Positions 1 through 19,207 of a stretch of DNA of 64,000 nucleotides are shown piece by piece. The position numbers were made by a program, and so were the translations under genes. Under the pieces are notes generated by a model. That model searched no databases. It worked only from the letters and a program-made list of their open reading frames with translations, and had not been told where the DNA came from. This DNA comes from Bryobacterales bacterium (GTDB lineage: Bacteria; Acidobacteriota; Terriglobia; Bryobacterales; UBA6623): the NCBI GenBank assembly GCA_965116065.1, contig OZ220485.1, positions 3,760,347 through 3,824,346 on the forward strand, read 5' to 3'. Every line of letters starts with the position of its first letter. The first letter of the stretch is position 1.

Positions 1-238
1 CATGCTTACGGATTTCGTTGATCGTTCCGTGCGGCTCGATCAACTCGTCAGGTTCACTCCAGTCACTCGCCTCGCCCTTGGGTCTCGGCACCGGCAGTTG
101 GGTCGAACTTGGTCTCCGGCCAGGCTGCCGCCGATTCAGTGCTCGTCCGTGTTTGTCCAGCGCCCAGTGATCGCCCGGCTCTTGGTATGGCGTGTGCAGA
201 ATCCACTGATGGTTGGTACTCGAGATCTCATCAGGCAT
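1..238 (-). CDS. Partial CDS (first 79 codons, continues off the left edge): N-terminus resembling type III restriction Res-like / DEAD-box helicase proteins
   Basis: ATG at 238 on the minus strand, open to position 1. It is absent from the ORF track because there is no stop in the window. The translation MPDEISSTNHQWILHTPYQEPGDHWALDKHGRALNRRQPGRRPSSTQLPVPRPKGEASDWSEPDELIEPHGTINEIRKH follows the N-terminal pattern I recall for this family (P-[FY]-x-E-P-x-x-H-[WF], GRRxSS, P-[IV]-P-R-P-K, IN-x-IR). This is memory-based only. Confidence 0.4.
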   Translation of the reverse strand, partial: MPDEISSTNHQWILHTPYQEPGDHWALDKHGRALNRRQPGRRPSSTQLPVPRPKGEASDWSEPDELIEPHGTINEIRKH

Positions 239-882
239 GAGAATCTACTAGTTGAGCAGATTGGCTGGGGCGCATCGGTCCCAAACTCCGCACCGCCGGC
301 AGAGACCGATCGGCCCAAGCGTTCGAATGCGCCACGTTCTCGTGGGATCAGGTCAGCTACCTTCGCGGATAGAGATTCATCCTAGAATCGGACATGGAAC
401 CTCCGACACGGGGACGGAATGTGCACGGATATCACTTGGGATACAGGCGAATGAGCGAGTAGAGCGCACCTGCGCAGCGCAGGCAAACTCTACCGCGAAC
501 TTCTACGCAATGCCGACTCCTTCGACTACTCCCACAGGAAGACCCAGACCCGCTCCGAACAGCGTCGCCGACTGGTTACCCCTTCGGCACGTAGCCAGAC
601 CAAGGGATCTCGTACATTGAGGCTTGATCGCTCTCAGGAGGATGGGTCGACGGCCCGGAGATTTCCCCGAAACGGCTCTCTGGATGCATATGAACCGGAC
701 ATCGCATGCTGGTTGATGCCTCTGACCTCTTGGTCCGTGTCGCTGCTACCCGTGTTCTGCCGCGCATCTCCCAAGACGCAGCGAGGTGAATCAGCATGTC
801 CGCTACACTGAACGCAGTGTCTCCCGTGGAGTCGTTCACCTCGCATGCCGAGGCTTGATCCCCACTGACACACGGAACCATC

Positions 883-2244
883 GTGCCCAAGACCTTCTAC
901 TTGGAGACGTTCGGCTGTCAGATGAATGTCCACGACAGCGAGAAGCTCCGCAGTCTGCTTGTGACTCGCGGGTATAGCCAGGTCCAGTCTCCGGACACGG
1001 CCAGCATGCTCCTGTACAACACCTGCAGCATCCGGGACAAGGCCGAGCAGAAGGTGTTCTCCCGCCTCGGCGGTGTAAAGCGCAGCGGCTCCGCCAAGAC
1101 CATCGGGGTCTTGGGCTGCGTGGCACAGCACAACGGCGAAGGCATTTTCGACCTTGCACCGCACGTGGACTTCGTGTGCGGCTCGGCCAGCTACAACGAC
1201 TTGCCCGCCATCCTGGAAAGGGTCGAATCCGGTGAAACACGAGTCACGGGTCTGAACCTAGAAACCGACGAGACGTTCGATGTGCCCCGGACCGAGCGGG
1301 AACGGCCCTACAGCGCGTACATCACGATCATCGAGGGGTGCGACAAGTCCTGCACGTACTGCGTGGTGCCATTCACCCGGGGGCCGGAGCGCAGCCGTGA
1401 CAGCGCATCAGTCATGCGCGAGGCGCGCGAACTCTCCGACCGAGGCTACACGGAAATCACGTTGCTGGGACAAACCGTCAACAGCTACCGCGACCCTTCG
1501 CCCGCTGGCTGGAGCTTCGCCCGGCTGCTGGACGAGATCGGACATCTGCCCCGGATCCGGCGGGTGCGGTTCACCACCTCGCACCCCACCGATTTCACAG
1601 AGGACATCGTTCGAGCCATCGACGGCAATGAATCGCTCTGTGACTGGGTGCACCTCCCCGTGCAGTCGGGCGCGACCAGCGTCCTCCGGGGAATGCACCG
1701 CACCTACAGCCGGGAACAGTACTTGCATTGCATCGAGATGCTCAGGAGTGCGAACAGAACGATTGAGCTCAGCACTGACATCATCGTGGGTTTCCCGGGT
1801 GAATCCGAAGCGGATTTCCAGCAGACGCTCTCCCTGCTGGATGCGGTCGAATACTGCTCGGTCTTCTCCTTCAAGTACTCGCCACGCAAGGGCACGCCGG
1901 CCGCTGAGATGCCACAGATTCCCGAGGAAGAGAAGGCAAGGCGCCTGCGGGAGTTGCAGGAACATCAACGTCGGATCCAGTTGCGTCGGAATGCCGACCT
2001 GATCGGACGTTGCGAAGAGGTTCTTGTCGAGGGCCACAAGAAGAAGTTCAACCAGTGGGTCGGGCGCACGACCCAGAACCGTGTGCTGAACTTCACGGAT
2101 TCCTCAGCCTTGGCCGAAGGTCGCGACCTCCGTGGCAACTACTGCAACGTCCGGGTTACCGCATCCGGTCCGAATTCCCTGGTCGGCGACCTGGTGTCGG
2201 CCAATACGGAGACCGCATTCCAAGGGTTTCACGTCCTGAACTGA
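883..2244 (+). CDS. miaB: tRNA-2-methylthio-N6-dimethylallyladenosine synthase (radical SAM methylthiotransferase)
   Basis: 453 aa, GTG start. N-terminal FYLETFGCQMNVHDSE...NTCSIRDKAEQK, radical-SAM CxxxCxxC (CDKSCTYCVVP) and a C-terminal TRAM-like region. Confidence 0.9.
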   Translation: MPKTFYLETFGCQMNVHDSEKLRSLLVTRGYSQVQSPDTASMLLYNTCSIRDKAEQKVFSRLGGVKRSGSAKTIGVLGCVAQHNGEGIFDLAPHVDFVCGSASYNDLPAILERVESGETRVTGLNLETDETFDVPRTERERPYSAYITIIEGCDKSCTYCVVPFTRGPERSRDSASVMREARELSDRGYTEITLLGQTVNSYRDPSPAGWSFARLLDEIGHLPRIRRVRFTTSHPTDFTEDIVRAIDGNESLCDWVHLPVQSGATSVLRGMHRTYSREQYLHCIEMLRSANRTIELSTDIIVGFPGESEADFQQTLSLLDAVEYCSVFSFKYSPRKGTPAAEMPQIPEEEKARRLRELQEHQRRIQLRRNADLIGRCEEVLVEGHKKKFNQWVGRTTQNRVLNFTDSSALAEGRDLRGNYCNVRVTASGPNSLVGDLVSANTETAFQGFHVLN

Positions 2245-2257
2245 AAGGGAGACAACG

Positions 2258-2749
2258 ATGGCAGAGATCGAGATGAGAATCTGCGGCCTGATGATGGACC
2301 CGATCACGAACATGCCGATCGTGGTCCTGAAGGACAAGGCCAACAAGACCGTACTGCCCATCTGGATCGGTGTGTACGAGGCGAACGCAATCGCCTTGGA
2401 GATCGAGAAGGTAGCCACCCCCCGACCCATGACGCACGACCTGTTCACGAACCTGATGCAAGCGTCCGAAGCCTGGATCCAGAGAGTGGTCGTCAGCGAG
2501 CTGAAGGACGATACCTTCTTCGCCGTGATCTGGCTCCAGCAGAAGGATGGCCAACTGATGTCCATCGACTCACGACCCAGCGACGCTCTGGCATTGGCGC
2601 TCAGGATGGACTGCCCGATCTATGTCAACGAACAGGTGATTGCTTCGTCGAAACTCTCCCCAAGCCTGAACGACAAGGCCAACAGCGACGAACTGCTCAA
2701 GTGGCTGGATAACCTTGGAGAAGAGGACTTGGGTCAGTACAAGATGTGA
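2258..2749 (+). CDS. Bifunctional nuclease family protein (DUF151)
   Basis: 163 aa. PIVVLKD...VLPIWIGVYEANAIALEIEKV...RPMTHDL and SIDSRPSDALALALR are typical of DUF151. It starts 13 nt after miaB, a common synteny. Confidence 0.8.
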   Translation: MAEIEMRICGLMMDPITNMPIVVLKDKANKTVLPIWIGVYEANAIALEIEKVATPRPMTHDLFTNLMQASEAWIQRVVVSELKDDTFFAVIWLQQKDGQLMSIDSRPSDALALALRMDCPIYVNEQVIASSKLSPSLNDKANSDELLKWLDNLGEEDLGQYKM

Positions 2750-2963
2750 CCGGGATTAGCGACGGATGCGGCGAGGCTCAGATTTCCCGAGATAGGGACC
2801 ATGCCTCCTGCCTGTTCAGATCTATGCCCCCAATATCGTCCTACGCGGGCCTCTGACTGGCTTGAATTCGTGACGATCAACATCTGGGCACTTTCAGCAC
2901 CTTAAGCGTGGACGCCCAAGCTGGATCAAGCACTTTCAGATGCAGGATCAAGAGACCTCTTGG

Positions 2964-3533
2964 TTAGGAATTTCCGGTCATATTTTTGATTGAAATAGTC
3001 TTTGTATCGGGAGTTCTATCTCTCATGAATATCTCCCATTGTTCTGCATCTTTATCAATCAGAATTCGAGACTTCGAAATATAATCGTTTCCAGCCCAAA
3101 CGAGCAAGAAAGAAGCGAGTATCATGAGTTCAAGTAGCCCTAGAAAAATCCAGGTAATCCATCCTGTAATCTGGACTTGAAGGGTGACCGCTATAGTCCC
3201 ACCGACAACAACGACTAGCGCAGACCATGCCAAGATATTGGAGATCTTTCTGTCCCTCTGACCTACACCAAACACATAATCAGACAACTTACGCCATCCT
3301 AAATGGTCTGCTATGACTTTTTTGTTCTTGGCATCATTCTCAACGATTCCCGCCCAAAACGAAAGTCGTTTATAGTAATCTGACTTCTTTAGACCATTTG
3401 ATACGTTGTCCAACTTCCCCATTTTCTCGCGAGCATATTTCCTGAGTTGTGCTCGATGTTCCAATGTTTCTAATCGGAGATAAGCGAGATTTGCAGCTAA
3501 AACAAATACAGCCATATTGACTAGAGTTTGCAC
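2964..3533 (-). CDS. Hypothetical small membrane protein (island gene B), no family recognised
   Basis: 189-aa ORF in a strongly AT-rich stretch (22/60 GC by hand count for 3001-3060). Hydrophobic segments lie at about aa 98-119 and 123-146, with a weaker one at aa 4-19. GTG start at 3533 with a GAGAG about 10 nt upstream; an alternative ATG is at 3515. It lies 67 nt downstream of, and is co-oriented with, gene A. Confidence 0.6.
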   Translation of the reverse strand: MQTLVNMAVFVLAANLAYLRLETLEHRAQLRKYAREKMGKLDNVSNGLKKSDYYKRLSFWAGIVENDAKNKKVIADHLGWRKLSDYVFGVGQRDRKISNILAWSALVVVVGGTIAVTLQVQITGWITWIFLGLLELMILASFLLVWAGNDYISKSRILIDKDAEQWEIFMRDRTPDTKTISIKNMTGNS

Positions 3534-3600
3534 AGCGAATACTCTCTCGAAAGCTATGGCAGAGGTCTAGTACAGGCCATTCTCTGTTCTAGATTTGGCA

Positions 3601-4131
3601 TCAGTGCATGTCAGCCGGGACGACATCAACAGATTTGCAATCAGCCCATAGTTCCTCATATATCTTGGCCAAGTTCTTCGCACCTTCCGGATGCCCGAAA
3701 GCTGCAACAGCTGACGACTTTGTCTTGTCCTCTTCAAAGCGATAGCTGTTCTTGTCGACAACGACGAAATGAAACTGGTACCGATCCTGTACGTCTTGGG
3801 AGGCGATACGCAATTCGATACTCGATACATCGGAACATGCCTTGAATAATGGATGAATTCGTCGATCCTCGGGGATATCTTTCTCCAGAATAATCCTCAG
3901 CTTGTTATTGGCGGACGATGCTAGAAACAGCTCCGCCTCCTCGACCACCGAATTCCTTCCGTATACCCTAGCATTAAGGGAGCCTGACAGAATGTCAACC
4001 GTTCGCTCTGCATTCGCAAACAGATACTGAATGACAACAGAGGCGTGCTCAACGGATGCGTTGTAGGTCGGCGTGCCGTCTCGTCTGGATGCGAGTGACT
4101 GCACCAGTGCTCTGTACTCGGGTAGAGTCAT
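3601..4131 (-). CDS. Hypothetical soluble protein (island gene A) with PLD-like motif order but no HKD lysine
   Basis: 176 aa, ATG preceded by AAGGAA 8 nt upstream. The motif order AERTVDILSGSL / NNKLRIILEKD / SIELRIAS / FHFVVVDKNSYRFEED / AKNLAKIYEELW resembles a single phospholipase-D-like domain, but it has H-F-V instead of H-x-K. The fold assignment is a guess from pattern. Confidence 0.55.
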   Translation of the reverse strand: MTLPEYRALVQSLASRRDGTPTYNASVEHASVVIQYLFANAERTVDILSGSLNARVYGRNSVVEEAELFLASSANNKLRIILEKDIPEDRRIHPLFKACSDVSSIELRIASQDVQDRYQFHFVVVDKNSYRFEEDKTKSSAVAAFGHPEGAKNLAKIYEELWADCKSVDVVPADMH

Positions 4132-4712
4132 GCTGATGTTCCTTGCTTTCGCACAAAGTCGTGAGCCCGCATCAATCTCATGGTACGTTCTTCCACTATC
4201 GCCGGTTACCGCACGATACGATCCGCTCGTAGCCGAGACGATCCAGTTCTCACTCTGAGTGTGACAGATCCCCGTTCTCCCCGCCCTGTCGACGAAGACA
4301 CAGCGATGCGATGGTCCGGTTCAGCGCACTCAAGCCTGCGCTCCTGACGCCGTCTGATTATAGGCAACCCATTCTGAGATCGCAACTGGCGGGACAACGA
4401 GACAACCTCGAGTTGCGGCACGTCGATGCGTCCACCTTTCTGAACTCGGAGGAACATTGTCGCCGTCATAGCGCATCTGCCACTTCAAGCGTCATCGTGC
4501 ATCCGCTGCATCAGGACAACCAAGATTCGGGGAATCGCCTAGACCCAGGTTCCCGAGCCCCCGTAAATTACTCCCAAGCAACAGCTTGTGCCAGATCCAA
4601 GAAAGTCCACCCAGACGCTTGGAAGAGGCGCTGCACTCGCTCAGATGTCTCAGGATCGAGTTCGACTTCGTGACGCGCGAAGACAGCCCGTGCTGGAAGC
4701 TCCAGGGATGGA

Positions 4713-5654
4713 TCAGACTACCGGGCCGCGATGCTCGCCCAGTTCGGCGGCCCGCCGCTCGCCGTCTTCCATCACCTCACTAAGCTCCGTTCCCGCAAGC
4801 GGCTTGTAGGCCTGCACGGTCGCCACCGCCTTCTCCAGTTCGGCAACGGACTTCATGCCCATGATCGCGACCGAAAGACCCGGAATGCCCAGCGCGTACC
4901 GAACCGCACGTCCATAGTGCGGCTCGTCCGAGAGGATCGCCCCGTCACCGACAGTACCGCCAAGAATCTTCATCGCCACGACGCCAAGGCCGCGGTCCGC
5001 AGCCTCCTGGAACACCGTACCCTCGAAATCGTATATGTGACGGTCGATCGGGTTGACAGCGGCCATCACCGCCTCGACGCGTCCCGAACGGAGAATCGGC
5101 AGCGCCCGCGCAGGCCGCAAGTGGCAGGTCATCCCGATGTGGCGCACCAGCCCACGCTTCTTCAGTACTTCGAGCCCAGCGAGCGCACCGTCCTCGCCGA
5201 GCAGGACATCCAGGCTGGGAAACCGGTCGGTTCGCCCCACGTTGTGCAGGTGGACGAGATCAAAATGCCCGGCCCCTGTCTTCTGCAGGCTCTCCCGTAC
5301 CTGCCATGTGGCATCCTGCCGGGATGTCGCCTCCACCTTGGTGACCACGACGAACTTGTCCCGCTTGCCCTTGAGCGCCGGTCCCAGCCGACGTTCCGAC
5401 TGTGCATAGATCGGCGCCGTATCGAGATAGTTCACACCAAGGTCGGCCGCCGCCGCGATGACATCGTTGACCTCGGTCTGGCTGATCCCCTCGCGACCGA
5501 GCGGCGACGTGCCGATCCCTAGCACACCCACCTCCAGGCCGGTCCTGCCGAACTTCCGCTTGGCGACTGACTCAGCCCGGGCTGTGGCTCCGGCGGCCAG
5601 CACTCCGGTGATGGCGGCGGTCTTGCCGAGGTCCCTGCGAGTGATCTGTGGCAT
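4713..5654 (-). CDS. Aldo/keto reductase with twin-arginine (Tat) signal
   Basis: I chose the start at MPQITRRDLGKTAAITGVLAAGATARA because GGAGGAA lies 6 nt upstream of this ATG (5654); the track ORF extends to 5729. The body has AKR motifs (GIGTSPLG, NYLDTAPIY, HLHNV). Confidence 0.85.
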   Translation of the reverse strand: MPQITRRDLGKTAAITGVLAAGATARAESVAKRKFGRTGLEVGVLGIGTSPLGREGISQTEVNDVIAAAADLGVNYLDTAPIYAQSERRLGPALKGKRDKFVVVTKVEATSRQDATWQVRESLQKTGAGHFDLVHLHNVGRTDRFPSLDVLLGEDGALAGLEVLKKRGLVRHIGMTCHLRPARALPILRSGRVEAVMAAVNPIDRHIYDFEGTVFQEAADRGLGVVAMKILGGTVGDGAILSDEPHYGRAVRYALGIPGLSVAIMGMKSVAELEKAVATVQAYKPLAGTELSEVMEDGERRAAELGEHRGPVV

Positions 5655-5823
5655 TGGGTTCCTCCGACTCATAGTGTAGGGAATCGGCTTCCCGGATGCC
5701 CGCGGCGTGCCTGCAACCGGTCCTCGCACAGCGGTCCTTGACGATGATCAGTCCGGCGACTCCGTTCTGAACTAGAATGGGACTTGGTCGGAACACCCCG
5801 GCCCCGCTCTCGTCCAATCCTCC

Positions 5824-6399
5824 ATGGAGGCCGATCCGACCGCAGTCAGCGGGTCCCGTCCGCCTGACGTGAACGTTCTCAAGCCGACCGGCATCAATGT
5901 TCGGGTGTGGATCCGCGACATCGCCCTCTCGTTCCTGATCGCTGCCTTCGTCATCGTGTTCCTGTGTCAACCCGTCAAGGTCGAGGGCACGAGCATGCTC
6001 CCGCAACTGGAAGATGAGCAGCGGATCTTCGTCAGCAAGATCTCCTATCGCTTCGAGAGCATCGAACGGGGTGACGTGATCGTGTTCCGTTTCCCCGAGG
6101 ATCCCTCACGCTCCTACATCAAGCGCGTCGTCGGCCTGCCCGGCGACACGATCGAGATCAGGGAGGGTCAGGTCTTCATCAACGAGACCGCCTACCCCGA
6201 GCCGCACGTGCCGCCCCACTACCGGGACCAGTCCAGCCGTGCCCCCTCGGTCGTTTCGGAAAACACCTACTATGTGCTGGGCGATCACCGCAACACCTCG
6301 AACGACAGCCGCACCTGGGGTACGGTTGCCGAAAGGTTCGTTACAGGCAAGGCCGTCTTCGCCTACTGGCCTCTTGGGAAGATCGGTGTCGTCCGTTAG
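5824..6399 (+). CDS. lepB: Signal peptidase I
   Basis: 191 aa with an N-terminal TM segment. It has the catalytic box VEGTSMLPQL, GDVIVFRFP, YIKRVVGLPGD and LGDHRNTSNDSR. Confidence 0.85.
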   Translation: MEADPTAVSGSRPPDVNVLKPTGINVRVWIRDIALSFLIAAFVIVFLCQPVKVEGTSMLPQLEDEQRIFVSKISYRFESIERGDVIVFRFPEDPSRSYIKRVVGLPGDTIEIREGQVFINETAYPEPHVPPHYRDQSSRAPSVVSENTYYVLGDHRNTSNDSRTWGTVAERFVTGKAVFAYWPLGKIGVVR

Positions 6400-6417
6400 T
6401 CCGGGCTGCCACGAAGA

Positions 6418-7551
6418 ATGAGTTTTCCAGCCATACTCGCGCTCGAGGACGGACGCTGCTTTCACGGACGCGGGTTCGGAGCCCGCACCGAAGCCGCCGG
6501 GGAAGTGGTCTTCAATACCGGTCTTACCGGCTATCAGGAGATATTCACGGACCCGTCGTACAGCGGCCAGATCGTGGTCCTGACGTACCCTCACATCGGC
6601 AACTACGGCACCAACCCCGACGACAGCGAGTCCGCATGCCCGTGCATCGAGGGACTCGTCACGCGAGAGTTCTCGTCGATCGACAGCAACTGGCGGTCCC
6701 GGCAACCGGCCTCGGAATTCCTGGCATCGCGCGACATACCGGTCCTGGCCGACATCGATACCAGGGCCTTGGTACGCCACATCCGGCGGCATGGGTCTCT
6801 TCGCGGTGTTGTCTCCTCCATCGACACCAACCCCGACCGCTTGGTGGACAAGGCCAGGGCAACGCCCAGGATGGCCGGACTCGACCTTGCCAGCGGCGTC
6901 TCCACGCCCACTTGCTACCAGTGGACGGACGGCCCTCCGGATAGCCTGCCATCAGCACTGCCAGAGAACCCGGCCGAGCATTCGTTCCACGTGGTGGCCT
7001 ACGATTTCGGCATCAAGCGGAACATTCTCCGGCGCCTGGCGGCCATCGGCGCTCACGTCACAGTTGTCCCCTGCCAGACATCGGCCGAGGATGCGCTGGC
7101 GCTGCAACCCGACGGCGTGTTCGTCTCGAACGGCCCAGGGGATCCCGAACCGCTGGCGGGGCCAGCGGCGGAAATCCGCAGGCTGGCGGGACGCGTCCCG
7201 ATCTTCGGCATCTGTCTCGGTCTGCAGGTTCTCGGCCGAGCCCTTGGAGGCAGAACCTACAAGCTCAAGTTCGGGCACCACGGGTGCAATCACCCGGTCC
7301 TGAACAACCGCACCGGGAAGGTGGAGATCACATCCCAGAACCACGGCTTCGCCCTCGACCCGGACTCCCTGGACGCATCGTCGATCGAACTGACTCATGT
7401 CAACCTCAACGACCAGACCGTCGAGGGATTCCGCAGCCGCAAGGACCCGCTGTTCTGCGTCCAGTACCACCCCGAAGCCGCCCCTGGCCCCCACGATTCC
7501 CGGTACCTGTTCGACGAGTTTCGCGACCTCATGCTGGCTTCGGCGGGCTAG
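6418..7551 (+). CDS. carA: Carbamoyl-phosphate synthase small (glutaminase) subunit
   Basis: 377 aa. N-terminal [15 protein letters not shown]...[21 protein letters not shown] and the GATase triad region IFGICLGLQ...QYHPEA. Confidence 0.95.
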
Positions 7552-7586
7552 TCACCAGCAGAGATCGCCCCCTACCAAGCCTGTCC

Positions 7587-10805
<3,219 letters not shown>

Positions 10806-10864
10806 GTGCGGCGGCCTGCAGGCGCGTCGGATCACCCGCTGCGAGTCGCTGTCGGCCGGCCCAC

Positions 10865-10870
10865 TAGAAT
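10865..10870 (+). promoter_or_regulatory. -10-like TAGAAT, 8 nt upstream of purH ATG
   Basis: It is part of the 9-mer CTAGAATGG (10864-10872), which also occurs upstream of lepB at 5772-5780. No convincing -35 is present. Confidence 0.3.
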
Positions 10871-10878
10871 GGACGCTT

Positions 10879-12429
10879 ATGGGTAGGATTCGGCGTGCGC
10901 TGCTGAGTGTCACCGACAAGACCGGTCTGGCGGACTTTGCCGGCCAACTCGCATCCTGTGGCATCACACTCGTCTCTACCGGCGGGACCGCGAGGACTCT
11001 GCGCGAGGCCGGTCTGTCGGTCCTTGATGTATCAGAGGTGACCGGATTTCCGGAGATGCTGGACGGTCGAGTGAAGACCTTGCATCCGCGGATCGCGGGC
11101 GGCATTCTGGGGATTCGTTCGAATCCCCAGCACGTCAGTGCATTGCAACAGCACGGGATTGATCCGATCGATATGGTCGTCGTCAACCTGTACGCATTCG
11201 AGGCAACGGCGGAGAGGGAGGGCGCGACATTCGAAGAACTGATCGAGAACATTGACATCGGGGGCCCGTCGCTCATCCGGGCTGCAGCCAAGAACTTCCG
11301 TGACGTCGCAATCGTGACGGACCCGGCCGACTATGAGGCCATCGCCGACGAAATCGAGACCGCTGACGAGTTGTCCGAGAGCACGCACTGGAGGCTGGCG
11401 CGCAAGGCCTTCGCAGCCACTGCTGCGTACGACCATGCGATCAGCGCCACACTTGCCGGACTGGAGCCCGGTCAGGCTCCGGGCGCGATGAAACCGGACC
11501 CTTTCCCAGCCTCCCTGGACATGCATGTGCCCAGAGCGCGAATGCTCCGGTACGGAGAGAATCCGCACCAGCAGGCAGCCCTGTATACCGACGGTCGGTC
11601 CGGCGCGGCAGGTGCGCAGCCCTTGCATGGCAAGGCACTGTCGTACAACAACCTGGTCGATCTCGATGCCTCCTGGCAGCTAGGCCTCGAGTTCGAGCAA
11701 CCAGCGGTGGCGATCATCAAGCACACCAATCCATGCGGCTGTGCGGAGGGTCCGACGCTGGCGGACGCATACCGGAAGGCGTTGGCCTGCGATCCGGTAT
11801 CGGCATTCGGCTCGGTGATCGCCACCAGTGTGGAAATCGACACCGAGACGGCCCAGGAGATGTCGAAACTCTTCGTCGAGGCGATCGCAGCGCCCGGGTT
11901 TTCCTCCGGAGCACTGGCCGTCCTTACCCGGAAGCGAAACCTGCGACTGCTGGCTATCGAGCGGTCCGCTCCCGGGACGGTACTCCGGAGCATTTCCGGC
12001 GGATACCTGGTCCAGACCGAGGACCGAGGGGAGACCAGCCCGGAACGATTCGAGGTCGTCAGCAAGCGGGGACCGACCACAACCGAGGAAAGCGCACTAC
12101 GTTTCGCATGGAAGGTGGTCAAGCACGTGAAGTCGAACGCAATCCTGTACGCAAGAGACGGACAGACGATCGGCGTCGGGGCGGGACAGATGAGCCGGGT
12201 CGACGCCGCCCGCGTCGGTGCGATGAAGGCGGTGTTGCCCCTCGAGGGGAGCGTAGTCGCGTCTGACGCCTTCTTCCCGTTCGCGGACGGTGTCGAGGAA
12301 CTCGCGCAACGCGGCGCGACAGCCGTCATTCAGCCGGGCGGGTCCAAGCGCGACGCCGAGGTCGTCGAAGCGGCAGATCGTCTGGGATTGGCGATGATCT
12401 TCACCGGAGTGCGACACTTCCGGCACTGA
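10879..12429 (+). CDS. purH: Bifunctional AICAR transformylase / IMP cyclohydrolase
   Basis: 516 aa. RRALLSVTDKTGLADFA, GGTARTL, VKTLHPRI...VVNLYAF and the C-terminal GGSKRD...FTGVRHFRH. Confidence 0.95.
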   Translation: MGRIRRALLSVTDKTGLADFAGQLASCGITLVSTGGTARTLREAGLSVLDVSEVTGFPEMLDGRVKTLHPRIAGGILGIRSNPQHVSALQQHGIDPIDMVVVNLYAFEATAEREGATFEELIENIDIGGPSLIRAAAKNFRDVAIVTDPADYEAIADEIETADELSESTHWRLARKAFAATAAYDHAISATLAGLEPGQAPGAMKPDPFPASLDMHVPRARMLRYGENPHQQAALYTDGRSGAAGAQPLHGKALSYNNLVDLDASWQLGLEFEQPAVAIIKHTNPCGCAEGPTLADAYRKALACDPVSAFGSVIATSVEIDTETAQEMSKLFVEAIAAPGFSSGALAVLTRKRNLRLLAIERSAPGTVLRSISGGYLVQTEDRGETSPERFEVVSKRGPTTTEESALRFAWKVVKHVKSNAILYARDGQTIGVGAGQMSRVDAARVGAMKAVLPLEGSVVASDAFFPFADGVEELAQRGATAVIQPGGSKRDAEVVEAADRLGLAMIFTGVRHFRH

Positions 12430-12581
12430 ATGGTCGGCGATTCGGCAACCATCTACGGAGTGCTTGGATCACTTGGTTGGGAGATGCACCTGCAGTGTCG
12501 ATCCCCATCGACGCATCCTCTTGTGCGCCTTCTGGATCGCTGAGTTGTGACTCTCCCGGATGCCACGCCCTTCGGTCTGCG

Positions 12582-12827
12582 TCAGAGGTGTCGACACACC
12601 GCTTCGTGTCGGAGACGTTCCCCCTCATGGTCGACGAACTCGAGGTCGCAAGTGGCGCAATATCGAACAGGCAGGTCGACTTTCAAAGTAACCGCAGAAT
12701 CGCCCGAACCGTACTCGAACTCGTCGCACCGGACGGACATTTCGATAGCCCCACTAGCACACAGTGGGCACTCGAGTTCATCCGATGCTCTTCTTCCTGA
12801 GGACCTCGTCATTTCTTCCGGTGCCAT
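12582..12827 (-). CDS. YgiT/MqsA-type zinc-ribbon protein (putative antitoxin, no HTH domain)
   Basis: CPLC...(x37)...CATC zinc-ribbon with the YgiT-like layout (CPLCASGAIEMSVRCDEFEYGSG...VRYCATCDLEFV). I chose ATG 12827 (AAGGGA about 10 nt upstream), which lies 14 nt past the upstream gene's stop. The track ORF extends to 12893. Confidence 0.6.
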   Translation of the reverse strand: MAPEEMTRSSGRRASDELECPLCASGAIEMSVRCDEFEYGSGDSAVTLKVDLPVRYCATCDLEFVDHEGERLRHEAVCRHL

Positions 12828-12841
12828 GTTCCGTCGTCCCT

Positions 12842-13210
12842 TCACCCTCGTTCGGAGTGGCGGAAGTTCCGCCCATATGCCTTGCTCAGCCACAGTTCCA
12901 GCTTCACGTGGAGCTTGGTCGATGCCGACCCGGGGTCTGTGCCCATGACATAGCCCGTCGCATCTGGCCGTATCTTCAAATCGACCACTTCCACTTCCTT
13001 TCCAACCTCAAGATGCGATGCGATGAACTCCCATGCCGTCATGTCGGTGAGAAGAGCATCATCGCGTTTGGATACACCACCTGCTCTGATCGCCAATCCG
13101 TTCGGCCTCGACTCTAAGAGCCGTGGCTTCGCTTCTTCGAGCGGGCCCAGTCGATCAGTTGTCGTCTTGTGGGCCAACTGATCGCAGAGCTTCGCTCCCG
13201 GAATCTCCAC
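12842..13210 (-). CDS. Putative toxin partner of the zinc-ribbon protein (loosely MqsR-like), family uncertain
   Basis: 122-aa ORF with a GTG start and GGAG 9 nt upstream, immediately upstream of the YgiT-type gene (toxin-first order as in mqsRA). The C-terminal KLHVKLELW...RNFRHSE only loosely recalls the MqsR tail. Confidence 0.4.
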   Translation of the reverse strand: MEIPGAKLCDQLAHKTTTDRLGPLEEAKPRLLESRPNGLAIRAGGVSKRDDALLTDMTAWEFIASHLEVGKEVEVVDLKIRPDATGYVMGTDPGSASTKLHVKLELWLSKAYGRNFRHSERG

Positions 13211-13692
13211 GATTGCTCACTCCTCACAACACCTATCATATGGTTCATTTCGTCGAGCCATATCAAGTAAGTCGGCCTGACTCCGGGATATACACGTCAA
13301 GAAACTGATTCACAACGCCTTGCGGAACTCGTGCCGCGTTAAGAAAGGGCTGGGTCTCCGCAGTGCGACGACTCAGGACCGGTCACCGGACATCGGGCAA
13401 CTGTGCTGGGCTATGACCTTTCTCGGCTGCGGTGTACAATCAGCCGGAAGCCGGACAGTGTCCCGTCACGGACTTGTGTCTGGCGGGAGTGCGACTCGCT
13501 GGCAGGCGGTGGGCCGCCTCGTCCCGTCTGTTCTGCTGCCAGCAGGGACCACAACGGTATGTGGCTGGGATCCTGCAACTGGGGGAGACGACCGTAGCCC
13601 TGACTACACGTCACCAAGCAATCGGCGCCGAGGCGCATCCCGCTGGCGCCCACGGCGGCTGGTCCCGGTCGTCCGTAACTGAGGAGAAGTCC

Positions 13693-15315
13693 ATGCAAAG
13701 ACAGGTCATGGTACTCGCGCTGCTGCTTGTCAGCACACCATTACTGTCGGGTCGGCCCAATATCGTCTTCATGATGGCCGATGACCTGGGCATCGGTGAC
13801 GTGAAGTGCTACGGCGGGGACCGCTGCAAGACGAGCACGCCATCGATCGACTCGCTCGCGCGGGACGGAATGCTCTTCACGGACGCCCATTCGGTGGCAT
13901 CCGTCTGCGTTCCGTCCCGGATCGCCATCATGACCGGTCGCTACGCGTGGCGGTTCTCCCGCCCGACCCGCAACGGACCATGGGGATTTCTCAACCCTCA
14001 GCTATCACCTGGAACCTCCACGCTGGGCACCATGCTGCAAGGTGCCGGATACCGCACCGGATACGTCGGCAAGTGGCACTTGGGCACGCTGATGCAGACC
14101 ACGGACCGCGAGAACCAGGGACTGGACAACGTGGACTATGACCGTCCGCTCCGGGTGGGCCCGAACGACTACGGATTCGACTACTCCTTCATCCTTCCCG
14201 GCTCCCTCGACATGTACCCCTACGTGTTCGTCCGCAACGGCCACTTCCAAGGGCGTGTCACCGCGCGGAAGGGCTGGAGTGCATTCAACCGGATCGGCCC
14301 GGCCGCCGAGGACTTCGAGGACTTCAGAGTCCTGGATGTGTTCGCCACCGAAGCAGAGCAGTTTATCAGGCGAAACGCGGCGTCGGCCCGCGATGGCCAG
14401 CCGTTCTTCCTATACGTGGCTTTGACATCTCCGCATACGCCGACCAGCCCGAGCGAGGACTTCGAAGGAACCAGCTCAATCGGACTCTACGGCGACTTTG
14501 TCGAGGAAACCGACGCCACGATGGGTCGTGTACTTGAGGCGCTGGAGCAGCACGGTCTGACCGACAACACCCTGGTTGTCGCTACATCGGACCATGGCGC
14601 GGCCCCCTACGCCGGGAACATCCGCAAGGCCACTGCGGGCCAGATCCACGATCTGGAAGAACTTGGCCATTACTCCAGCAGTATCTATCGTGGCTACAAG
14701 TTCACGGTGTTCGAGGGCGGCCTCCGCATTCCCTTCGTCGTTCGCTGGCCCGGTACCGTCGACCCCGGCACTCGCTGCGACCGTCTGGTGGGACTGAATG
14801 ACGTCCCGGCAACATTCGCCGAGGCGGCTGGTGTCGAGGCGCAGCCCGGAGCCAACCCGGACTCGTTCAGCATCCTGCACCTGCTCAGGGAGCCGTCAGC
14901 GTCGGCCCCGCATCGGGCTCTGGTGATGCAATCGCCGCAGGCATTCGCAGTCCGTTCCGGCCAATGGAAGCTCACACTGACTCCCGGCAGTGGTGCGCGT
15001 GGACTGTGGGGCACGAAACCCGTCCCGGAGCAGGCATGGGGAGACGCACTGCAAGCATTTGGTCGCAAACCCACCACAACGGATCTCCGACAAGCACCCT
15101 TCGTCCAGTTGTTCGACTTGCAGGCGGATGTGGGAGAGACAACGAATATCGCGGCCGACCATCCCGAAATCGTGGACCAGCTCGGTCGGGAACTCGATCG
15201 TCTGATCACACGAGGACGCAGCACGCCCGGGCCCTCACTCCCGAACGACGTGGAATCGGTGGATGTGCATCGGAACGCCAACCAGTGGATCCGGAAACTC
15301 TCCGGCTCCTACTGA
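13693..15315 (+). CDS. Arylsulfatase (Cys-type, secreted)
   Basis: I chose ATG 13693 (GAGGAGAA upstream; MQRQVMVLALLLVSTPLLSG signal); the track ORF starts at 13432. It has NIVFMMADDLG and the sulfatase signature CVPSRIAIMTGR. Confidence 0.85.
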   Translation: MQRQVMVLALLLVSTPLLSGRPNIVFMMADDLGIGDVKCYGGDRCKTSTPSIDSLARDGMLFTDAHSVASVCVPSRIAIMTGRYAWRFSRPTRNGPWGFLNPQLSPGTSTLGTMLQGAGYRTGYVGKWHLGTLMQTTDRENQGLDNVDYDRPLRVGPNDYGFDYSFILPGSLDMYPYVFVRNGHFQGRVTARKGWSAFNRIGPAAEDFEDFRVLDVFATEAEQFIRRNAASARDGQPFFLYVALTSPHTPTSPSEDFEGTSSIGLYGDFVEETDATMGRVLEALEQHGLTDNTLVVATSDHGAAPYAGNIRKATAGQIHDLEELGHYSSSIYRGYKFTVFEGGLRIPFVVRWPGTVDPGTRCDRLVGLNDVPATFAEAAGVEAQPGANPDSFSILHLLREPSASAPHRALVMQSPQAFAVRSGQWKLTLTPGSGARGLWGTKPVPEQAWGDALQAFGRKPTTTDLRQAPFVQLFDLQADVGETTNIAADHPEIVDQLGRELDRLITRGRSTPGPSLPNDVESVDVHRNANQWIRKLSGSY

Positions 15316-15407
15316 GTTGAACGGTGGAAAATGCACTGGATCGTGAGGCGGAACGCGGTACCCCTGGCCACAGGCTGGGCCGGACCCTATGCCAAACTGG
15401 GCGAACG

Positions 15408-16622
15408 ATGCGATTTGACGAAGCAGCCAACAGAGTGCGCGTCGCGGAACTGCGCCGACGCGGGGTGGACGTGTGGGGTCCCGAGCGCGTGTACGTGGAC
15501 GAGAATGTCCAACTGGACCGGATCGAGCCAGGCGCCGTCATCCGCCAGGCTTCGCTCTCCGGTCCGCACCTGAGCATCGCTACCGGTGCCGAGATCGGTA
15601 CGTCCGGTCATGCTGAGGTGAACGATTGCCAGATCGGCACCGGTGTGCAACTGGGCTCCGGGCTGTACATGGGGGCGACTCTGCTCGAGGGTGTGAAGGT
15701 CCGTGGATTTGCCGAAATCCGGCCGCACACCCTGCTGGAGGAACAGGCGGAAGCGGCCCACTCGGTGGCCCTGAAGAACACGACGTTCACGGCCTGCTGC
15801 GTCGCCGGATCGCTGATCAACTTCTGCGACATATTCGTCAGCGGCGGCACATCAAGGGAGGATCACACGGAAGTGGGCTCTGGAGCGATCCACTACAATT
15901 TCGATCCCCGTGGCGACAAGTGGGGCAGCTTGATCGGCGAAATCCGGGGCGTGCTGCTGCGGTCCGCACCAGTATTCGTCGGCGGACATTGCGGCATCGT
16001 GGGCCCTGTGACGATCGGACTCGGCGCCATCACCGCCGCGGGTTCCACCATTCGCAGGAACGTGCCGGAAGGTACGCTCTACGGGTCGGCTGCAAAGGAC
16101 ATCTCGCTCCCCGACTTCGACCGCACCGCATCCAGGTCGATGACGGGCAGGCTGCGGACCACAGTGCAGTTGATCTCCACGCTGCACGCTCTGGACGCCT
16201 GGTACCGATTCGTGCGGATCCCTCATGCCCGAGGCAACGAAGGGAGGCTCTACGACGCAGCCCGGCGGCGCATAGGCGCCCAGATCGACGAGCGGATCGT
16301 ACGGCTCGACCGGGCAGTTGACAGCCTTCGGGCGGCCCTTCCCCGGCAGACGAACGGCCCCGCCGGCGGGGGGCCACAGGGAGATCACGTCCGCCTGGTC
16401 AGGAACTGGCCCGAATTGCGAACGATCTTGCATCGGGCCGGAGACCCCGGCCCCCCTCCCGCGAGATTCCTTGAATGCTATTCCCGCAGTCGACAAGAAG
16501 GCCAGAGCCATCTGGCTTCGATCCGGGGAGCGGCACCGGTTGCGGACATGGCCGAAAACTGGCTCAACGACCATGTCACGGACATCCAGGATCTCTTCGT
16601 CAGCGCGGTCGAGACCGAATGA
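15408..16622 (+). CDS. Left-handed beta-helix (hexapeptide-repeat) protein, GlmU C-terminal-like, with helical C-terminal extension
   Basis: Repetitive hexapeptide-like stretches (IGTGVQLGSGLYMG..., VGSGAIHYNF, VGGHCGIVGPVTIGLGAITAAGSTI). The start is uncertain: ATG 15408 or GTG 15324. The function is not assignable from sequence alone. Confidence 0.5.
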   Translation: MRFDEAANRVRVAELRRRGVDVWGPERVYVDENVQLDRIEPGAVIRQASLSGPHLSIATGAEIGTSGHAEVNDCQIGTGVQLGSGLYMGATLLEGVKVRGFAEIRPHTLLEEQAEAAHSVALKNTTFTACCVAGSLINFCDIFVSGGTSREDHTEVGSGAIHYNFDPRGDKWGSLIGEIRGVLLRSAPVFVGGHCGIVGPVTIGLGAITAAGSTIRRNVPEGTLYGSAAKDISLPDFDRTASRSMTGRLRTTVQLISTLHALDAWYRFVRIPHARGNEGRLYDAARRRIGAQIDERIVRLDRAVDSLRAALPRQTNGPAGGGPQGDHVRLVRNWPELRTILHRAGDPGPPPARFLECYSRSRQEGQSHLASIRGAAPVADMAENWLNDHVTDIQDLFVSAVETE

Positions 16623-16955
16623 AGCTCGCCGGGAATTCAAGCTCCCCCGGCGAAGGCTCTTCCGGACCACCTCGCCCCCGGGGAGGTTGATGCAGCCGTC
16701 CGGTCCTGGCCCGCATCATCGGGTGCATCGTCGCTTCATGTCCGGCTGGAGGGACACTCGTCGAGTGGATACCTGGACTCCGGGTCCTTCGCCAGCGGGC
16801 GGACTGCCGCACGTCTCCGCGACACGTCGCCCGGAGCACTTCATGGCAGCAGGCGCCATCAGTGACCGTGACCAAATCCAAGGCTTCGTGCGGCACGCAG
16901 CGGAGTACATCCAGCGGCACGGCCCGGCGAGCGCCGGGGAGACCGCTCGCTGCCT

Positions 16956-18173
16956 CTAGTTCCGGACCAGCCGAAAGGTCCCGTAGTGGTAGGGGTAGCC
17001 TTCGCGGAACCAGTTCCGGAAGGTCCGCCGAATCAACGGCAGGGCCGTGCGCTGGGAGCCCCCTTTCAGAACGTAGTGCGTGTCATCGAAGAACGCTGCC
17101 GAATAATCCGGATAGAACGGATAGGGATCGAACCCCGGAAAAGGCCGGAGCAAGGCGGAGGTCCACTCCCATCCGTTACCGACCATCTGGGAGACGCCGA
17201 AGCAACTGTCTCCGTCCGGTGACGCCGTCACCGCACACGGATCCCACCGGACGAGGTTGACGTTGGCGTGGCGCGGTTCCGGTGACTCGGTTCCCCAGGG
17301 AAAGCTGGTGGACCCCGATGGAGCCGACCCGAACGCGGCACGGTCCCACTGCGCCTCCGAAGGCAGAGCCGCTCCGGATCGCCCGGCAAACTCCCGCGCC
17401 TCCTGGTGGGTCACATGCACCGGCCAATCCAGTGGAAGGGAAATCTCGCCGGACATCGTGCGCAGCGTCCAACCCCGCTCGCTGCGCCGCCAGTAGTGTG
17501 GCGGCTTGCCACCATCCTCGACGAAGCGGAGATACTCCCCGTTGGTGACCTTGTGTTTGCGGACGGAGAACGGAGCAATGTCCAAGCAGTGTTCCCCGAA
17601 CTCGTTGTCCCACCCGAACCCCGTCCCGCGCGCTCGGCCGAGTGTCGCCGTGCCGCGCGGAACGTCGATCCACTGTTCGGTCGGCGGCGGCACGGACGGC
17701 GCGGCATCGGGACCGCCATCGGGCTCGATCAGCTTGTGGGACGGATCGAGATTGTGCAGCAGGTAGCACAGGGTCTCTGCATGCATGAGGCGGTGCTCGA
17801 TGCAAACACGGGCAACATCCTCCGGCACGGTGTCGAACACTCCGTCGACGGTCCTGCGGACAAGCTGGCAGTAGGCCCGGGTTTCTGCCAGACCGGGCCA
17901 GTCTTCCGGAACATCGGAAGGCAGGTCACTCGCATCCGGGTCGATGCCGAACGCGAACAGCGCATCAAGTTCGACGTTGACCGAGTCCCCGCCCAACGCA
18001 TGACGGCAGATCATGTTGGCATCGAACGCCTCGAGATGGCCAAGGTAGAAATTCAGCCGATGCCGTTCCGGCACCGGTCGGACAAACAGCGAAGCGGGCC
18101 GGACCAAGGCAAACAGGGCGTCGGTGCAGTCCCTCGCCTCCTGCAAGCTTCTCAACTGGGCAGTCGAACTCAC
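16956..18173 (-). CDS. egtB: EgtB-type sulfoxide synthase (DinB_2 + FGE-sulfatase domains)
   Basis: 405 aa. It has an N-terminal DinB-like segment (FYLGHLEAFD) and a C-terminal FGE/SUMF1-like domain (GNGWEWT...VLKGGS). It is divergently adjacent to egtD. Confidence 0.75.
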   Translation of the reverse strand: MSSTAQLRSLQEARDCTDALFALVRPASLFVRPVPERHRLNFYLGHLEAFDANMICRHALGGDSVNVELDALFAFGIDPDASDLPSDVPEDWPGLAETRAYCQLVRRTVDGVFDTVPEDVARVCIEHRLMHAETLCYLLHNLDPSHKLIEPDGGPDAAPSVPPPTEQWIDVPRGTATLGRARGTGFGWDNEFGEHCLDIAPFSVRKHKVTNGEYLRFVEDGGKPPHYWRRSERGWTLRTMSGEISLPLDWPVHVTHQEAREFAGRSGAALPSEAQWDRAAFGSAPSGSTSFPWGTESPEPRHANVNLVRWDPCAVTASPDGDSCFGVSQMVGNGWEWTSALLRPFPGFDPYPFYPDYSAAFFDDTHYVLKGGSQRTALPLIRRTFRNWFREGYPYHYGTFRLVRN

Positions 18174-18222
18174 GCCTTACATTATCGGCAATCCCGGCCT
18201 GGCCCCCGGAATTGACCCAGCA

Positions 18223-18231
18223 TGCTATAAA
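18223..18231 (+). promoter_or_regulatory. Extended -10-like element TGCTATAAA, 7 nt upstream of egtD ATG (leaderless-type arrangement)
   Basis: An AT-only hexamer in a GC-rich intergenic region, with a TGn extension and 7 nt between the hexamer end (18231) and ATG 18239. Confidence 0.4.
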
Positions 18232-18238
18232 CGGCCGA

Positions 18239-19198
18239 ATGGACAACGGTAATCCCCTTGCGTCCGACTTTGCGCGTGACGTGCGGACCGGTCTTTGCAG
18301 GGAAACTCGCAAGTGCCTTCCTGCCAAGTATCTGTACGACGATGTCGGAGCCGCCTTATTCGAAGCGATCACGCGCCTGCCCGAATACGGTCTGGCGAGG
18401 GCGGACGAACGGGTCGTCAACGACTGCGCGACGATTCTCCCGGCCTGCCTCGCTGCACCCGAGGTCATCGTGACGGAACTGGGAAGCGGAAGTGGCTCGA
18501 AGACCCGCCGGATCCTGGAGGCGTTTCCGCAGGGCCGTGTGCTCGAGTACCATCCCATCGACATATCGCAGGAGTCCCTGGCCCTCTGCCAGCGCCGACT
18601 GGACGGTCTCGTCCCGGTGAAACCCTTCCACGGGACCTACTCGGACGGACTGGACGCACTCAGCCGGTCGCGGCCGACGGATGTCCCGATGCTCCTGCTG
18701 TTCCTCGGCAGCAGCATCGGCAACCTCGATCCTGCCGAACGATCATCCTTCCTGGCCCACTTGCATGCGCACCTGCTGCCCGGAGACTGGATACTGCTGG
18801 GATTCGACCTGATGACATGCCGCGATCGCCTGCTCAAGGCCTACGACGATCCGGCCGGCGTCACGGCTGCCTTCAACCGCAACGTGCTCGGGCGCGTCAA
18901 CCGCGAACTTGCGGGGGATTTCGACATCACGTCCTTCGGCTATGTCGTCCGCTACGACGAGACGCAGCGTCGAGTCGAGATGCACCTGCGCTCGGACCGC
19001 GATCAACAGGTCGTGATTCCGGGAGCCGGAGCGACTTGTCGGCTCCGGCACGGCGAGACCATCTGGACCGAAAGTTCGTACAAGTTCCGGCCGGCAGACG
19101 TGCATCGGGAACTGGCAACCGCCGGGTTCGCACCTGTCGAGGAGTGGATCGATGACGAGTGGCCGGTCCTGGAAGGACTGTGGACGATCGGCGGCTGA
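18239..19198 (+). CDS. egtD: L-histidine N-alpha-methyltransferase
   Basis: DVRTGL...KCLPAKYLYDDVGAALFEAITRLPEYG, the SAM motif ELGSGSGSKTR and SSYKF. I chose ATG 18239 because TGCTATAAA (an extended -10) ends 7 nt upstream; the track ORF starts at 18212. Confidence 0.85.
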   Translation: MDNGNPLASDFARDVRTGLCRETRKCLPAKYLYDDVGAALFEAITRLPEYGLARADERVVNDCATILPACLAAPEVIVTELGSGSGSKTRRILEAFPQGRVLEYHPIDISQESLALCQRRLDGLVPVKPFHGTYSDGLDALSRSRPTDVPMLLLFLGSSIGNLDPAERSSFLAHLHAHLLPGDWILLGFDLMTCRDRLLKAYDDPAGVTAAFNRNVLGRVNRELAGDFDITSFGYVVRYDETQRRVEMHLRSDRDQQVVIPGAGATCRLRHGETIWTESSYKFRPADVHRELATAGFAPVEEWIDDEWPVLEGLWTIGG

Positions 19199-19207
19199 AT
19201 ACCGGAA

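Follow-up and report, generated by a model that had tools for sequence, protein, structure and literature searches.

What is a pair of short, AT-rich genes doing between ordinary housekeeping loci of a soil acidobacterium, and does it form a functional unit of its own? The question is raised by a stretch of 64,000 nucleotides (nt) from a Bryobacterales bacterium (GenBank assembly GCA_965116065.1, contig OZ220485.1, positions 3,760,347 to 3,824,346), hereafter the window, in which two adjacent minus-strand genes, here called A and B, are set apart from their surroundings by a low GC content. A preliminary description, made from the letters of the DNA alone, had proposed them as a candidate conflict or defence module. 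We find that A, which encodes a soluble protein of the DUF7931 family, and B, which encodes an unclassified membrane protein, form a pair that is obligate, co-evolves, is under selection and is exchanged horizontally; that the pair serves in biological conflict is a reading that we advance tentatively.

An obligate and co-evolving gene pair

The two-gene feature is real and well delimited. Both open reading frames (ORFs), the gap between them and the Shine–Dalgarno sequence of A lie where the preliminary description had placed them, and the features of the pair are the following.

3601–4131, minus strand: gene A, an ORF of 176 amino acids (aa) with an ATG start
2964–3533, minus strand: gene B, an ORF of 189 aa with a GTG start
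3534–3600, minus strand: the spacer of 67 nt between A and B, which fits an operon junction
4139–4144, minus strand: AAGGAA Shine–Dalgarno sequence, read from the sequence, 7 nt before the ATG of A (4131–4129)
2750–2963: 3′ spacer separating B from the convergent BFN gene, where variability between two near-identical strains peaks (14% mismatches and an 86-nt indel)
2750–3900: local divergence hotspot in the comparison with a 98.9%-identical strain, with a recombination breakpoint inside A near 3900

Homologous loci were collected from public assemblies, GTDB genomes and JGI metagenomes, hidden Markov models (HMMs) of A and of B were run on every locus, and redundancy was removed by clustering at 90% identity of A. 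A homologue of B follows directly after A in 28 of the 30 non-redundant loci, and in the two unpaired loci the contig holds little or no sequence after A, so that the co-occurrence of the two genes across genomes, proposed at the outset as a check on the module, is borne out. The pairing holds for A homologues down to 30%–45% identity and spans Bryobacterales, a Pseudorhodobacter, an alphaproteobacterium bearing a gene transfer agent (GTA) and a Spirochaetia genome, with a spacer between the two genes that mostly measures 6–99 nt; alignments of the homologues also back the GTG start of B. Distances among the A proteins and among the B proteins co-vary (Mantel r 0.82, reached in 0 of 2000 permutations), B being the faster-evolving partner (mean identity 0.28, compared with 0.48 for A). 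Purifying selection acts on both genes, whose ratios of nonsynonymous to synonymous divergence (dN/dS) are 0.11–0.33 in three close comparisons: A has a ratio of about 0.11 in two of the strain pairs and of 0.33 in the third, and B one of 0.13–0.19. The DUF7931 subfamily sampled here, which reaches down to about 30% identity with the A of the window, is an obligate partner of the B family. No third gene is conserved across the loci; the ORFs of about 195 aa found downstream in L006 and L008 and the ORF of 185 aa in L001, considered as candidates for such a gene, are mutually unrelated.

A second, diverged pair (L048:8001–9101) is present in this organism or in one nearly identical to it; its A is 56% and its B 27% identical to the proteins of the window, and this B matches the B HMM with an E value of 1.6e-52. 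This second pair is neighboured by a PhdYeFM-type antitoxin gene, a reverse transcriptase and an insertion sequence (IS) element. An apparently solitary B beside a GTA cluster in alphaproteobacterial loci (L017–L020) was rejected as such, an intact but uncalled A ORF being present directly upstream; in L017, A occupies approximately 7444–7953 and B 8001–8591, and the intact A (HMM E ~4e-65) had not been called by the source pipeline. In these loci the pair stands directly after an RcGTA-like tail cluster (GTA_TIM, Phage-tail_3, Rcc01698_C).

The collapse in GC content between housekeeping loci, noted from the start, is evident in a sliding-window analysis, which yields 0.41–0.49 over approximately 2850–4050 against 0.58–0.66 in the flanks. 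Gene by gene, A has a value of 0.503 and B one of 0.411, whereas the remaining window has 0.644, and the GC content at third codon positions is 0.55 and 0.40, respectively, compared with 0.77–0.82 in miaB, BFN, AKR, lepB and carA. The difference is not peculiar to this genome: the GC content of the pair lies below that of its flanks in all 18 loci with enough flanking sequence, by 10.5 points on average. To the left of the pair lie a miaB-like radical SAM gene and, convergent with B, a BFN/DUF151 gene, and to the right a gene for a Tat-signal aldo-keto reductase (AKR), co-oriented with and upstream of A, followed by lepB, carA and carB; the genes miaB, DUF151, Tat-AKR and lepB had been correctly named in the preliminary description, which was also right that there is no tRNA gene nearby (none in window positions 1–20000). 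No flanking direct or inverted repeats above chance level were found at the pair, and Rfam gave no match in window positions 2500–5000.

The spacer between AKR and A (4132–4712, 581 nt) has a host-like GC content of about 0.58, is nearly identical in both strains and contains only ORFs that look spurious. Promoter and terminator scans stayed at chance level, with one sigma-70-like match, TTGCGA-17-TATAAT, at 4385–4357 on the minus strand. The suggestion that the palindrome CACTCTGAGTG (4251–4261) could be an operator does not hold: palindromes of this 5-N-5 form number 104 in the window, and since this amounts to one per 615 nt, one is expected by chance in a spacer of 581 nt; moreover, none of the 29 homologous loci checked has the palindrome upstream of A.

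A phospholipase D-like protein and its membrane partner

The protein encoded by A is soluble and acidic (isoelectric point, pI, 5.6) and consists of a single phospholipase D (PLD)-like domain, which its profile match assigns to Pfam family DUF7931 (PF25559; 54.1 bits against a gathering threshold of 27, E = 1.8e-14, profile positions 4–141 of 149). The same domain is precomputed in all 36 A homologues. PADLOC, NCBIfam and PHROGs contain no match to A, the PLD families of Pfam none at E values up to 1, and the profile of the A family finds none among PDB sequences at E values up to 10. The fold is nevertheless clear from the AlphaFold2 model, which was built from 32 homologues and has a predicted local distance difference test (pLDDT) score of 94.5 and a predicted template modelling (pTM) score of 0.90: Foldseek aligns it with PLD-like structures of the PDB at E values of 1e-7 to 1e-5, including TrmBL2 (5bpi, E = 1.7e-7) and Nuc (1byr, E = 5e-7), with further matches to bacterial PLD, PLD3, vaccinia F13, FAM83, NucT, the sugar-binding domain of TrmB and PssA. 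The Foldseek probability is 1.00 for Nuc, NucT, PLD, PLD3, F13 and PssA, and a search of a viral structure library returned the same fold class, namely, viral PLD-fold proteins.

The family to which A belongs is large. A profile search of 1.84 billion representative proteins retrieved 2,691 relatives at E ≤ 1e-3, among them 1,077 at E ≤ 1e-10; motifs and residues were counted in the best 150 of the 2,691, nearly all of which are stand-alone proteins of 165–230 aa. The catalytic HxKxxxxD motif occurs in none of 151 sequences (A and the best 150 family representatives). At H121, the histidine of the H-F-V that takes the place of HxK in A, histidine is found in 98 and asparagine in 45 of 150 relatives, and no lysine follows two residues on. 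The most conserved polar residues of the family are instead D126 (148 of 150), R131 (146 of 149), N24, H29, E83 and E133. The early impression of a PLD-like domain without its catalytic motif was, accordingly, correct, and since A has the fold and lacks the HKD motif, it is, in functional terms, no member of the catalytic PLD superfamily.

Gene B encodes a basic protein (pI 9.7) with three hydrophobic helices, detected by hydropathy and seen in most members of its family. The first, at aa 4–21, carries LAxNLAYLR, the best-conserved motif of the B family; the other two form a strong transmembrane (TM) hairpin (aa 97–118 and 124–147), which is followed by a cytoplasmic helix and tail. The hairpin had been recognized in the preliminary description, which overlooked the N-terminal helix. 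The helical loop of 75 residues that leads from the first helix to the hairpin holds 18 lysines and arginines against 10 aspartates and glutamates, and this net positive charge implies a cytoplasmic location. No family could be assigned to B in Pfam, NCBIfam, PHROG or PADLOC, where its matches are weak, below cutoff and do not recur across the family; this was the fate of MASE1, DUF2207_C and PspM, each considered and rejected. The AlphaFold2 model is all-helical (pLDDT 78.5) and a fold search of the PDB with it found nothing significant (best E = 2.8). The statement that neither protein belongs to a named family thus stands for B and has to be revised for A, and neither protein matches a characterized housekeeping family.

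In several loci (L005/L006, L011 and L042) B is damaged, being truncated or frameshifted, beside an intact A. In L005 and L006, two assemblies of one locus, B is a degraded remnant (HMM E ~1e-3) followed by an unrelated 195-aa TM protein, and in L011 it is shortened to 73 aa.

How do A and B compare with characterized systems? By fold, the closest are Nuc and NucT, TrmB and TrmBL2, and the FAM83 proteins. Nuc (1BYR) and NucT (6EHI) share with A both the fold (Foldseek E values of 5e-7 to 1e-5, TM-score ~0.6) and the organization as a stand-alone single domain of about 150–175 aa; they differ in that the A family lacks HxK(x)4D and has no detectable sequence similarity to them, and Nuc is a periplasmic nuclease without an obligate membrane partner, whereas A is paired with B. 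The effector-binding domains of TrmB (2F5T) and TrmBL2 (5BPI), the latter being the best structural match of A (TMq 0.64), are likewise PLD-like domains used for binding rather than catalysis. TrmB proteins, however, are archaeal and combine an N-terminal winged-helix DNA-binding domain with a C-terminal barrel subdomain, whereas A is a bare PLD-like domain of bacteria, tied to a membrane protein and lacking detected sequence homology to them. The DUF1669 pseudo-PLD domain of FAM83 proteins (4URJ, 5QHM; Foldseek E ~2e-6) also has the PLD fold without catalysis and is a protein-interaction scaffold, but it operates in eukaryotic signalling, has no membrane partner and shows no sequence relationship to A.

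By architecture, the nearest systems are RexAB and type II Metis. In RexAB of phage lambda, the cytosolic RexA controls RexB, a small multi-pass membrane protein that makes membrane function collapse once it is activated, an architecture and logic that A and B may share; there is no homology between the two systems, and RexAB is encoded by a prophage, whereas A was not found in phage collections. Type II Metis is, similarly, a two-gene operon of a soluble partner and a TM effector, in which the HAD phosphatase MisB prevents the toxicity of the ligand-sensing TM effector MisC, a predicted pore oligomer, until a nucleotide signal appears (bioRxiv 10.1101/2025.11.05.686725). It differs from A and B in that MisB is an active HAD phosphatase rather than a PLD-fold protein and that the TM protein itself does the sensing, and again there is no homology. 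A weak match of B to the 2-TM region of PycTM (E = 0.0015) brought Pycsar to attention; the match was obtained with just 1 of 15 members of the B family and was rejected as a compositional chance match, and, unlike in Pycsar, the annotated neighbours of the pair show no cyclase and B shows no domain that binds cyclic nucleotide monophosphates. None of the nearest systems, whether by fold or by architecture, is homologous to A and B, which may be described as a two-gene module of a soluble partner and a putative TM effector from uncharacterized families.

Strain divergence and genomic surroundings

How such a pair travels can be gauged from a metagenome contig (L049) that covers the same locus in a strain 98.9% identical to that of the window. 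Mismatches amount to 0%–2.7% per 300 nt from about 3900 to 14100 and to 0%–3% over 901–2700 (BFN and miaB), and rise to 5%–7% over 3001–3900, that is, B and the distal two-thirds of A, and to the 14% with the 86-nt indel in the 3′ spacer (2701–3000). The excess at the pair is synonymous: synonymous divergence (dS) is 0.26 in distal A (3601–3900) and 0.18 in B, compared with 0.03 in the 5′ third of A, 0.026 in AKR, 0 in lepB and 0.008 in carB, and falls off leftward from the pair through BFN (0.12) and miaB (0.06). Because the divergence is sharply localized on the pair and the excess is synonymous, one of the strains has taken up a diverged version of the cassette by recombination, and the breakpoint falls inside A; relaxed constraint does not fit, because dN/dS remains near 0.1. 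This localized divergence has the pattern expected of accessory genes swapped among strains.

The left edge of the window (1–238, minus strand) holds the N-terminus of a ResIII helicase, which runs off the end and is 91% identical over 78 aa to a gene of L049, where a gene for a type III DNA methyltransferase (MTase_III, E = 8e-140) comes next after the ResIII gene (L049:15170–20531). Immediately to the left of miaB, some 2.7 kb away from B, there is therefore a type III-like restriction-modification system. Between miaB and the ResIII gene, L049 contains an insertion of about 1.2 kb that is not in the window (L049:13336–15169 versus window 239–882), an IS5-type element with DUF4096 and DDE_Tnp_1 ORFs, around which 900 nt are 14%–18% diverged.

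The genes that surround the pair are different in almost every lineage, and they are often defence-related or mobile. Of the 22 non-redundant loci whose flanks could be used, at least 8 carry recognized defence genes within approximately 7 kb:

Window and L049: type III methyltransferase (PADLOC MTase_III, E = 8e-140) and ResIII helicase, just past miaB
L001: defence protein of the dCTP-deaminase type (E = 4e-56)
L002 and L010: SoFic and PIN
L008: Dsr1 (E = 7e-131)
L009: type IIG restriction-modification (MmeI-like)
L012: type IIG / ISP fragment
L033: type I HsdR
L011: TOTE primase-helicase and a Schlafen/AlbA_2 protein

The genes in L011, a Bryobacterales metagenome-assembled genome, lie upstream of the pair (L011:82–4321) and comprise AEP-TOTE with ResIII (E = 1e-96) and a Schlafen/AlbA_2 protein with HATPase_c_4. 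In at least 5 further loci (L005/L006, L007, L016, L021 and L048), IS elements or integrases adjoin the pair, with a reverse transcriptase, tyrosine recombinases or elements of the types IS3, IS66, IS1595 or DDE_Tnp_1 as the mobile genes; from one copy of the pair to another, the IS elements and integrases are of different families. Directly downstream of A, L005 has a segment (L005:6776–8708) with IS3-family genes (HTH_Tnp_1, rve) and one unannotated ORF that is not in L006. Neither target-site duplications, terminal repeats nor a tRNA gene were found at the pair, and the ends of a mobile element are undefinable here because the DNA similarity between loci stops at the two coding regions.

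Candidate functions of the pair and their implications

What, then, might the pair do? The explanation that we put first, as a possibility held with reserve, is that A and B constitute a self-contained, horizontally exchanged conflict module, either an abortive-infection-type defence or an addiction module akin to toxin–antitoxin systems, with B as the membrane effector and A as a non-catalytic sensor or gatekeeper. B would enter the inner membrane through its N-terminal helix and TM hairpin, leaving the positively charged 75-residue loop and the C-terminal helix to face the cytoplasm, and would harm membrane integrity once released or activated. A would be its cytosolic, non-catalytic partner, binding a ligand or trigger (nucleic acid, a nucleotide, a phospho-ligand or a phage protein are candidates) at the relic PLD pocket and gating B, either by holding it back until the signal arrives or by activating it. 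It is from the architecture of the pair that we infer this sensor-plus-effector mechanism, and with it the toxicity of B, its physical contact with A, the existence of a trigger and an effect on phages. In favour of a conflict module we count the strict pairing and co-divergence of two genes under purifying selection, their foreign composition, the two diverged copies in one organism, the defence and mobile genes in many of the shifting neighbourhoods, the exchange of alleles between strains, and the PLD fold of A without HKD, whose nearest structures include the non-catalytic binders TrmB/TrmBL2 and FAM83. The logic is that of RexAB, and type II Metis sets a precedent for a soluble protein that restrains a toxic TM effector. 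The loss of B beside an intact A would fit a toxic B and offers a weak hint in this direction.

Several observations weigh against a role in conflict. That B decays and A stays is biased evidence, because most loci came from searches with A. The association with defence genes, which the preliminary description had proposed as a check, is moderate: several loci, including the immediate neighbours in the window, have plain housekeeping genes, elsewhere represented by ileS, DAHP synthase, a P-type ATPase, a two-component system and the GTA tail cluster, and many loci are purely of this kind. The enrichment in defence genes is modest and no more than suggestive, because about a third of the loci in this small sample have them against a background of approximately 20% for a random gene within this distance, a figure that we assume from a defence-gene density of 1%–2% rather than compute. 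Homologues of A were found in none of 50,697 phage records, 72,556 plasmids and the IMG/VR viral contigs, and no PADLOC defence model matches A or B convincingly. In the PDB fold search B resembles no known pore-forming effector, and the conserved polar patch of A could be a new catalytic site rather than a binding site.

A part of these observations would be accommodated by an accessory membrane or envelope function outside conflict, which we consider unlikely: A would be a TrmB-like cytosolic ligand-binding regulator of B, itself, for instance, a channel, a stress-response protein or a lipid-handling factor, and the pair would be niche-adaptive cargo. The top structural matches of A to the effector-binding domains of TrmBL2 and TrmB, the many loci amid metabolic or housekeeping genes, the lack of matches to defence models and of A homologues in the phage and plasmid collections, and the strong purifying selection on both genes are all as such a function would have it. 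By contrast, it does not account for the patchy occurrence across phyla and the two diverged copies in one genome, the consistently foreign GC content, the shifting neighbourhoods with restriction-modification genes, Dsr1, dCTP deaminase, IS elements and integrases, the swapping of alleles between strains at the locus or the repeated decay of B, and the pair lacks a consistent link to any metabolic or transport gene.

An improbable alternative, which in practice overlaps with the conflict-module explanation, is a pure toxin–antitoxin or addiction cassette without an immune role, in which B would be the toxin and A the antitoxin, and the pair would be kept since its loss kills the cell. An acidic A followed after a short spacer by a basic membrane protein B reproduces the usual antitoxin-first order, the conserved pairing is compatible with a type II module, the pair occurs in more than one copy, is mobile and has a low GC content, some loci keep A and lose B, and PIN, Fic, PhdYeFM and PSK_trans_fac genes are found near the pair in some loci. 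A, however, lacks a DNA-binding domain through which it could autoregulate, and its confidently predicted globular fold shows no disordered region of the kind found in labile antitoxins; both proteins exceed the typical size of toxin–antitoxin components, the strongly conserved polar site of A would be superfluous for a simple neutralizer, and A homologues are missing from the plasmids searched, among which addiction modules are common.

Least probable of all is that A is an active enzyme with a non-canonical site on the PLD scaffold (H29, E83, D126, R131 and E133), acting at the membrane on a phosphodiester substrate, such as a lipid head group or nucleic acid, with B as anchor or substrate-presenting partner: the near-invariance of D126 and R131, the high conservation of N24, H29, E83 and E133, and fold neighbours that include true phosphodiesterases and phosphatidyltransferases (Nuc, NucT, PLD3 and PssA) speak for it, but HxK(x)4D is absent throughout the 151 sequences, the sole nearby histidine, H121, is asparagine in 45 of 150, there is no sequence-level match to a PLD family or solved structure, and the best structural matches include non-catalytic PLD-fold proteins.

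Returning to the conflict module, we consider its reading as a defence system plausible and circumstantially supported. The stronger proposition, that DUF7931 and the B family together form an undescribed, cross-phylum anti-phage system of the abortive-infection type, in which a dead PLD-fold sensor gates a new class of three-helix membrane effectors, is more doubtful. The pair is a clean, testable candidate, one among many such candidates, and its alphaproteobacterial homologues are likely to provide easier hosts for genetics. DUF7931 is a large family without an assigned function, comprising about 2,700 clusters at 50% identity, and no paper in the searchable literature mentions DUF7931 or PF25559. 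Should the pair turn out not to be a conflict module, A and B would still be a cleanly defined two-protein system; should it be a defence or toxin module, it would add a new sensor fold, the pseudo-PLD, and a new effector family from the under-studied soil Acidobacteriota, and, if the anti-phage proposition is true, a function for the large orphan DUF7931 family.

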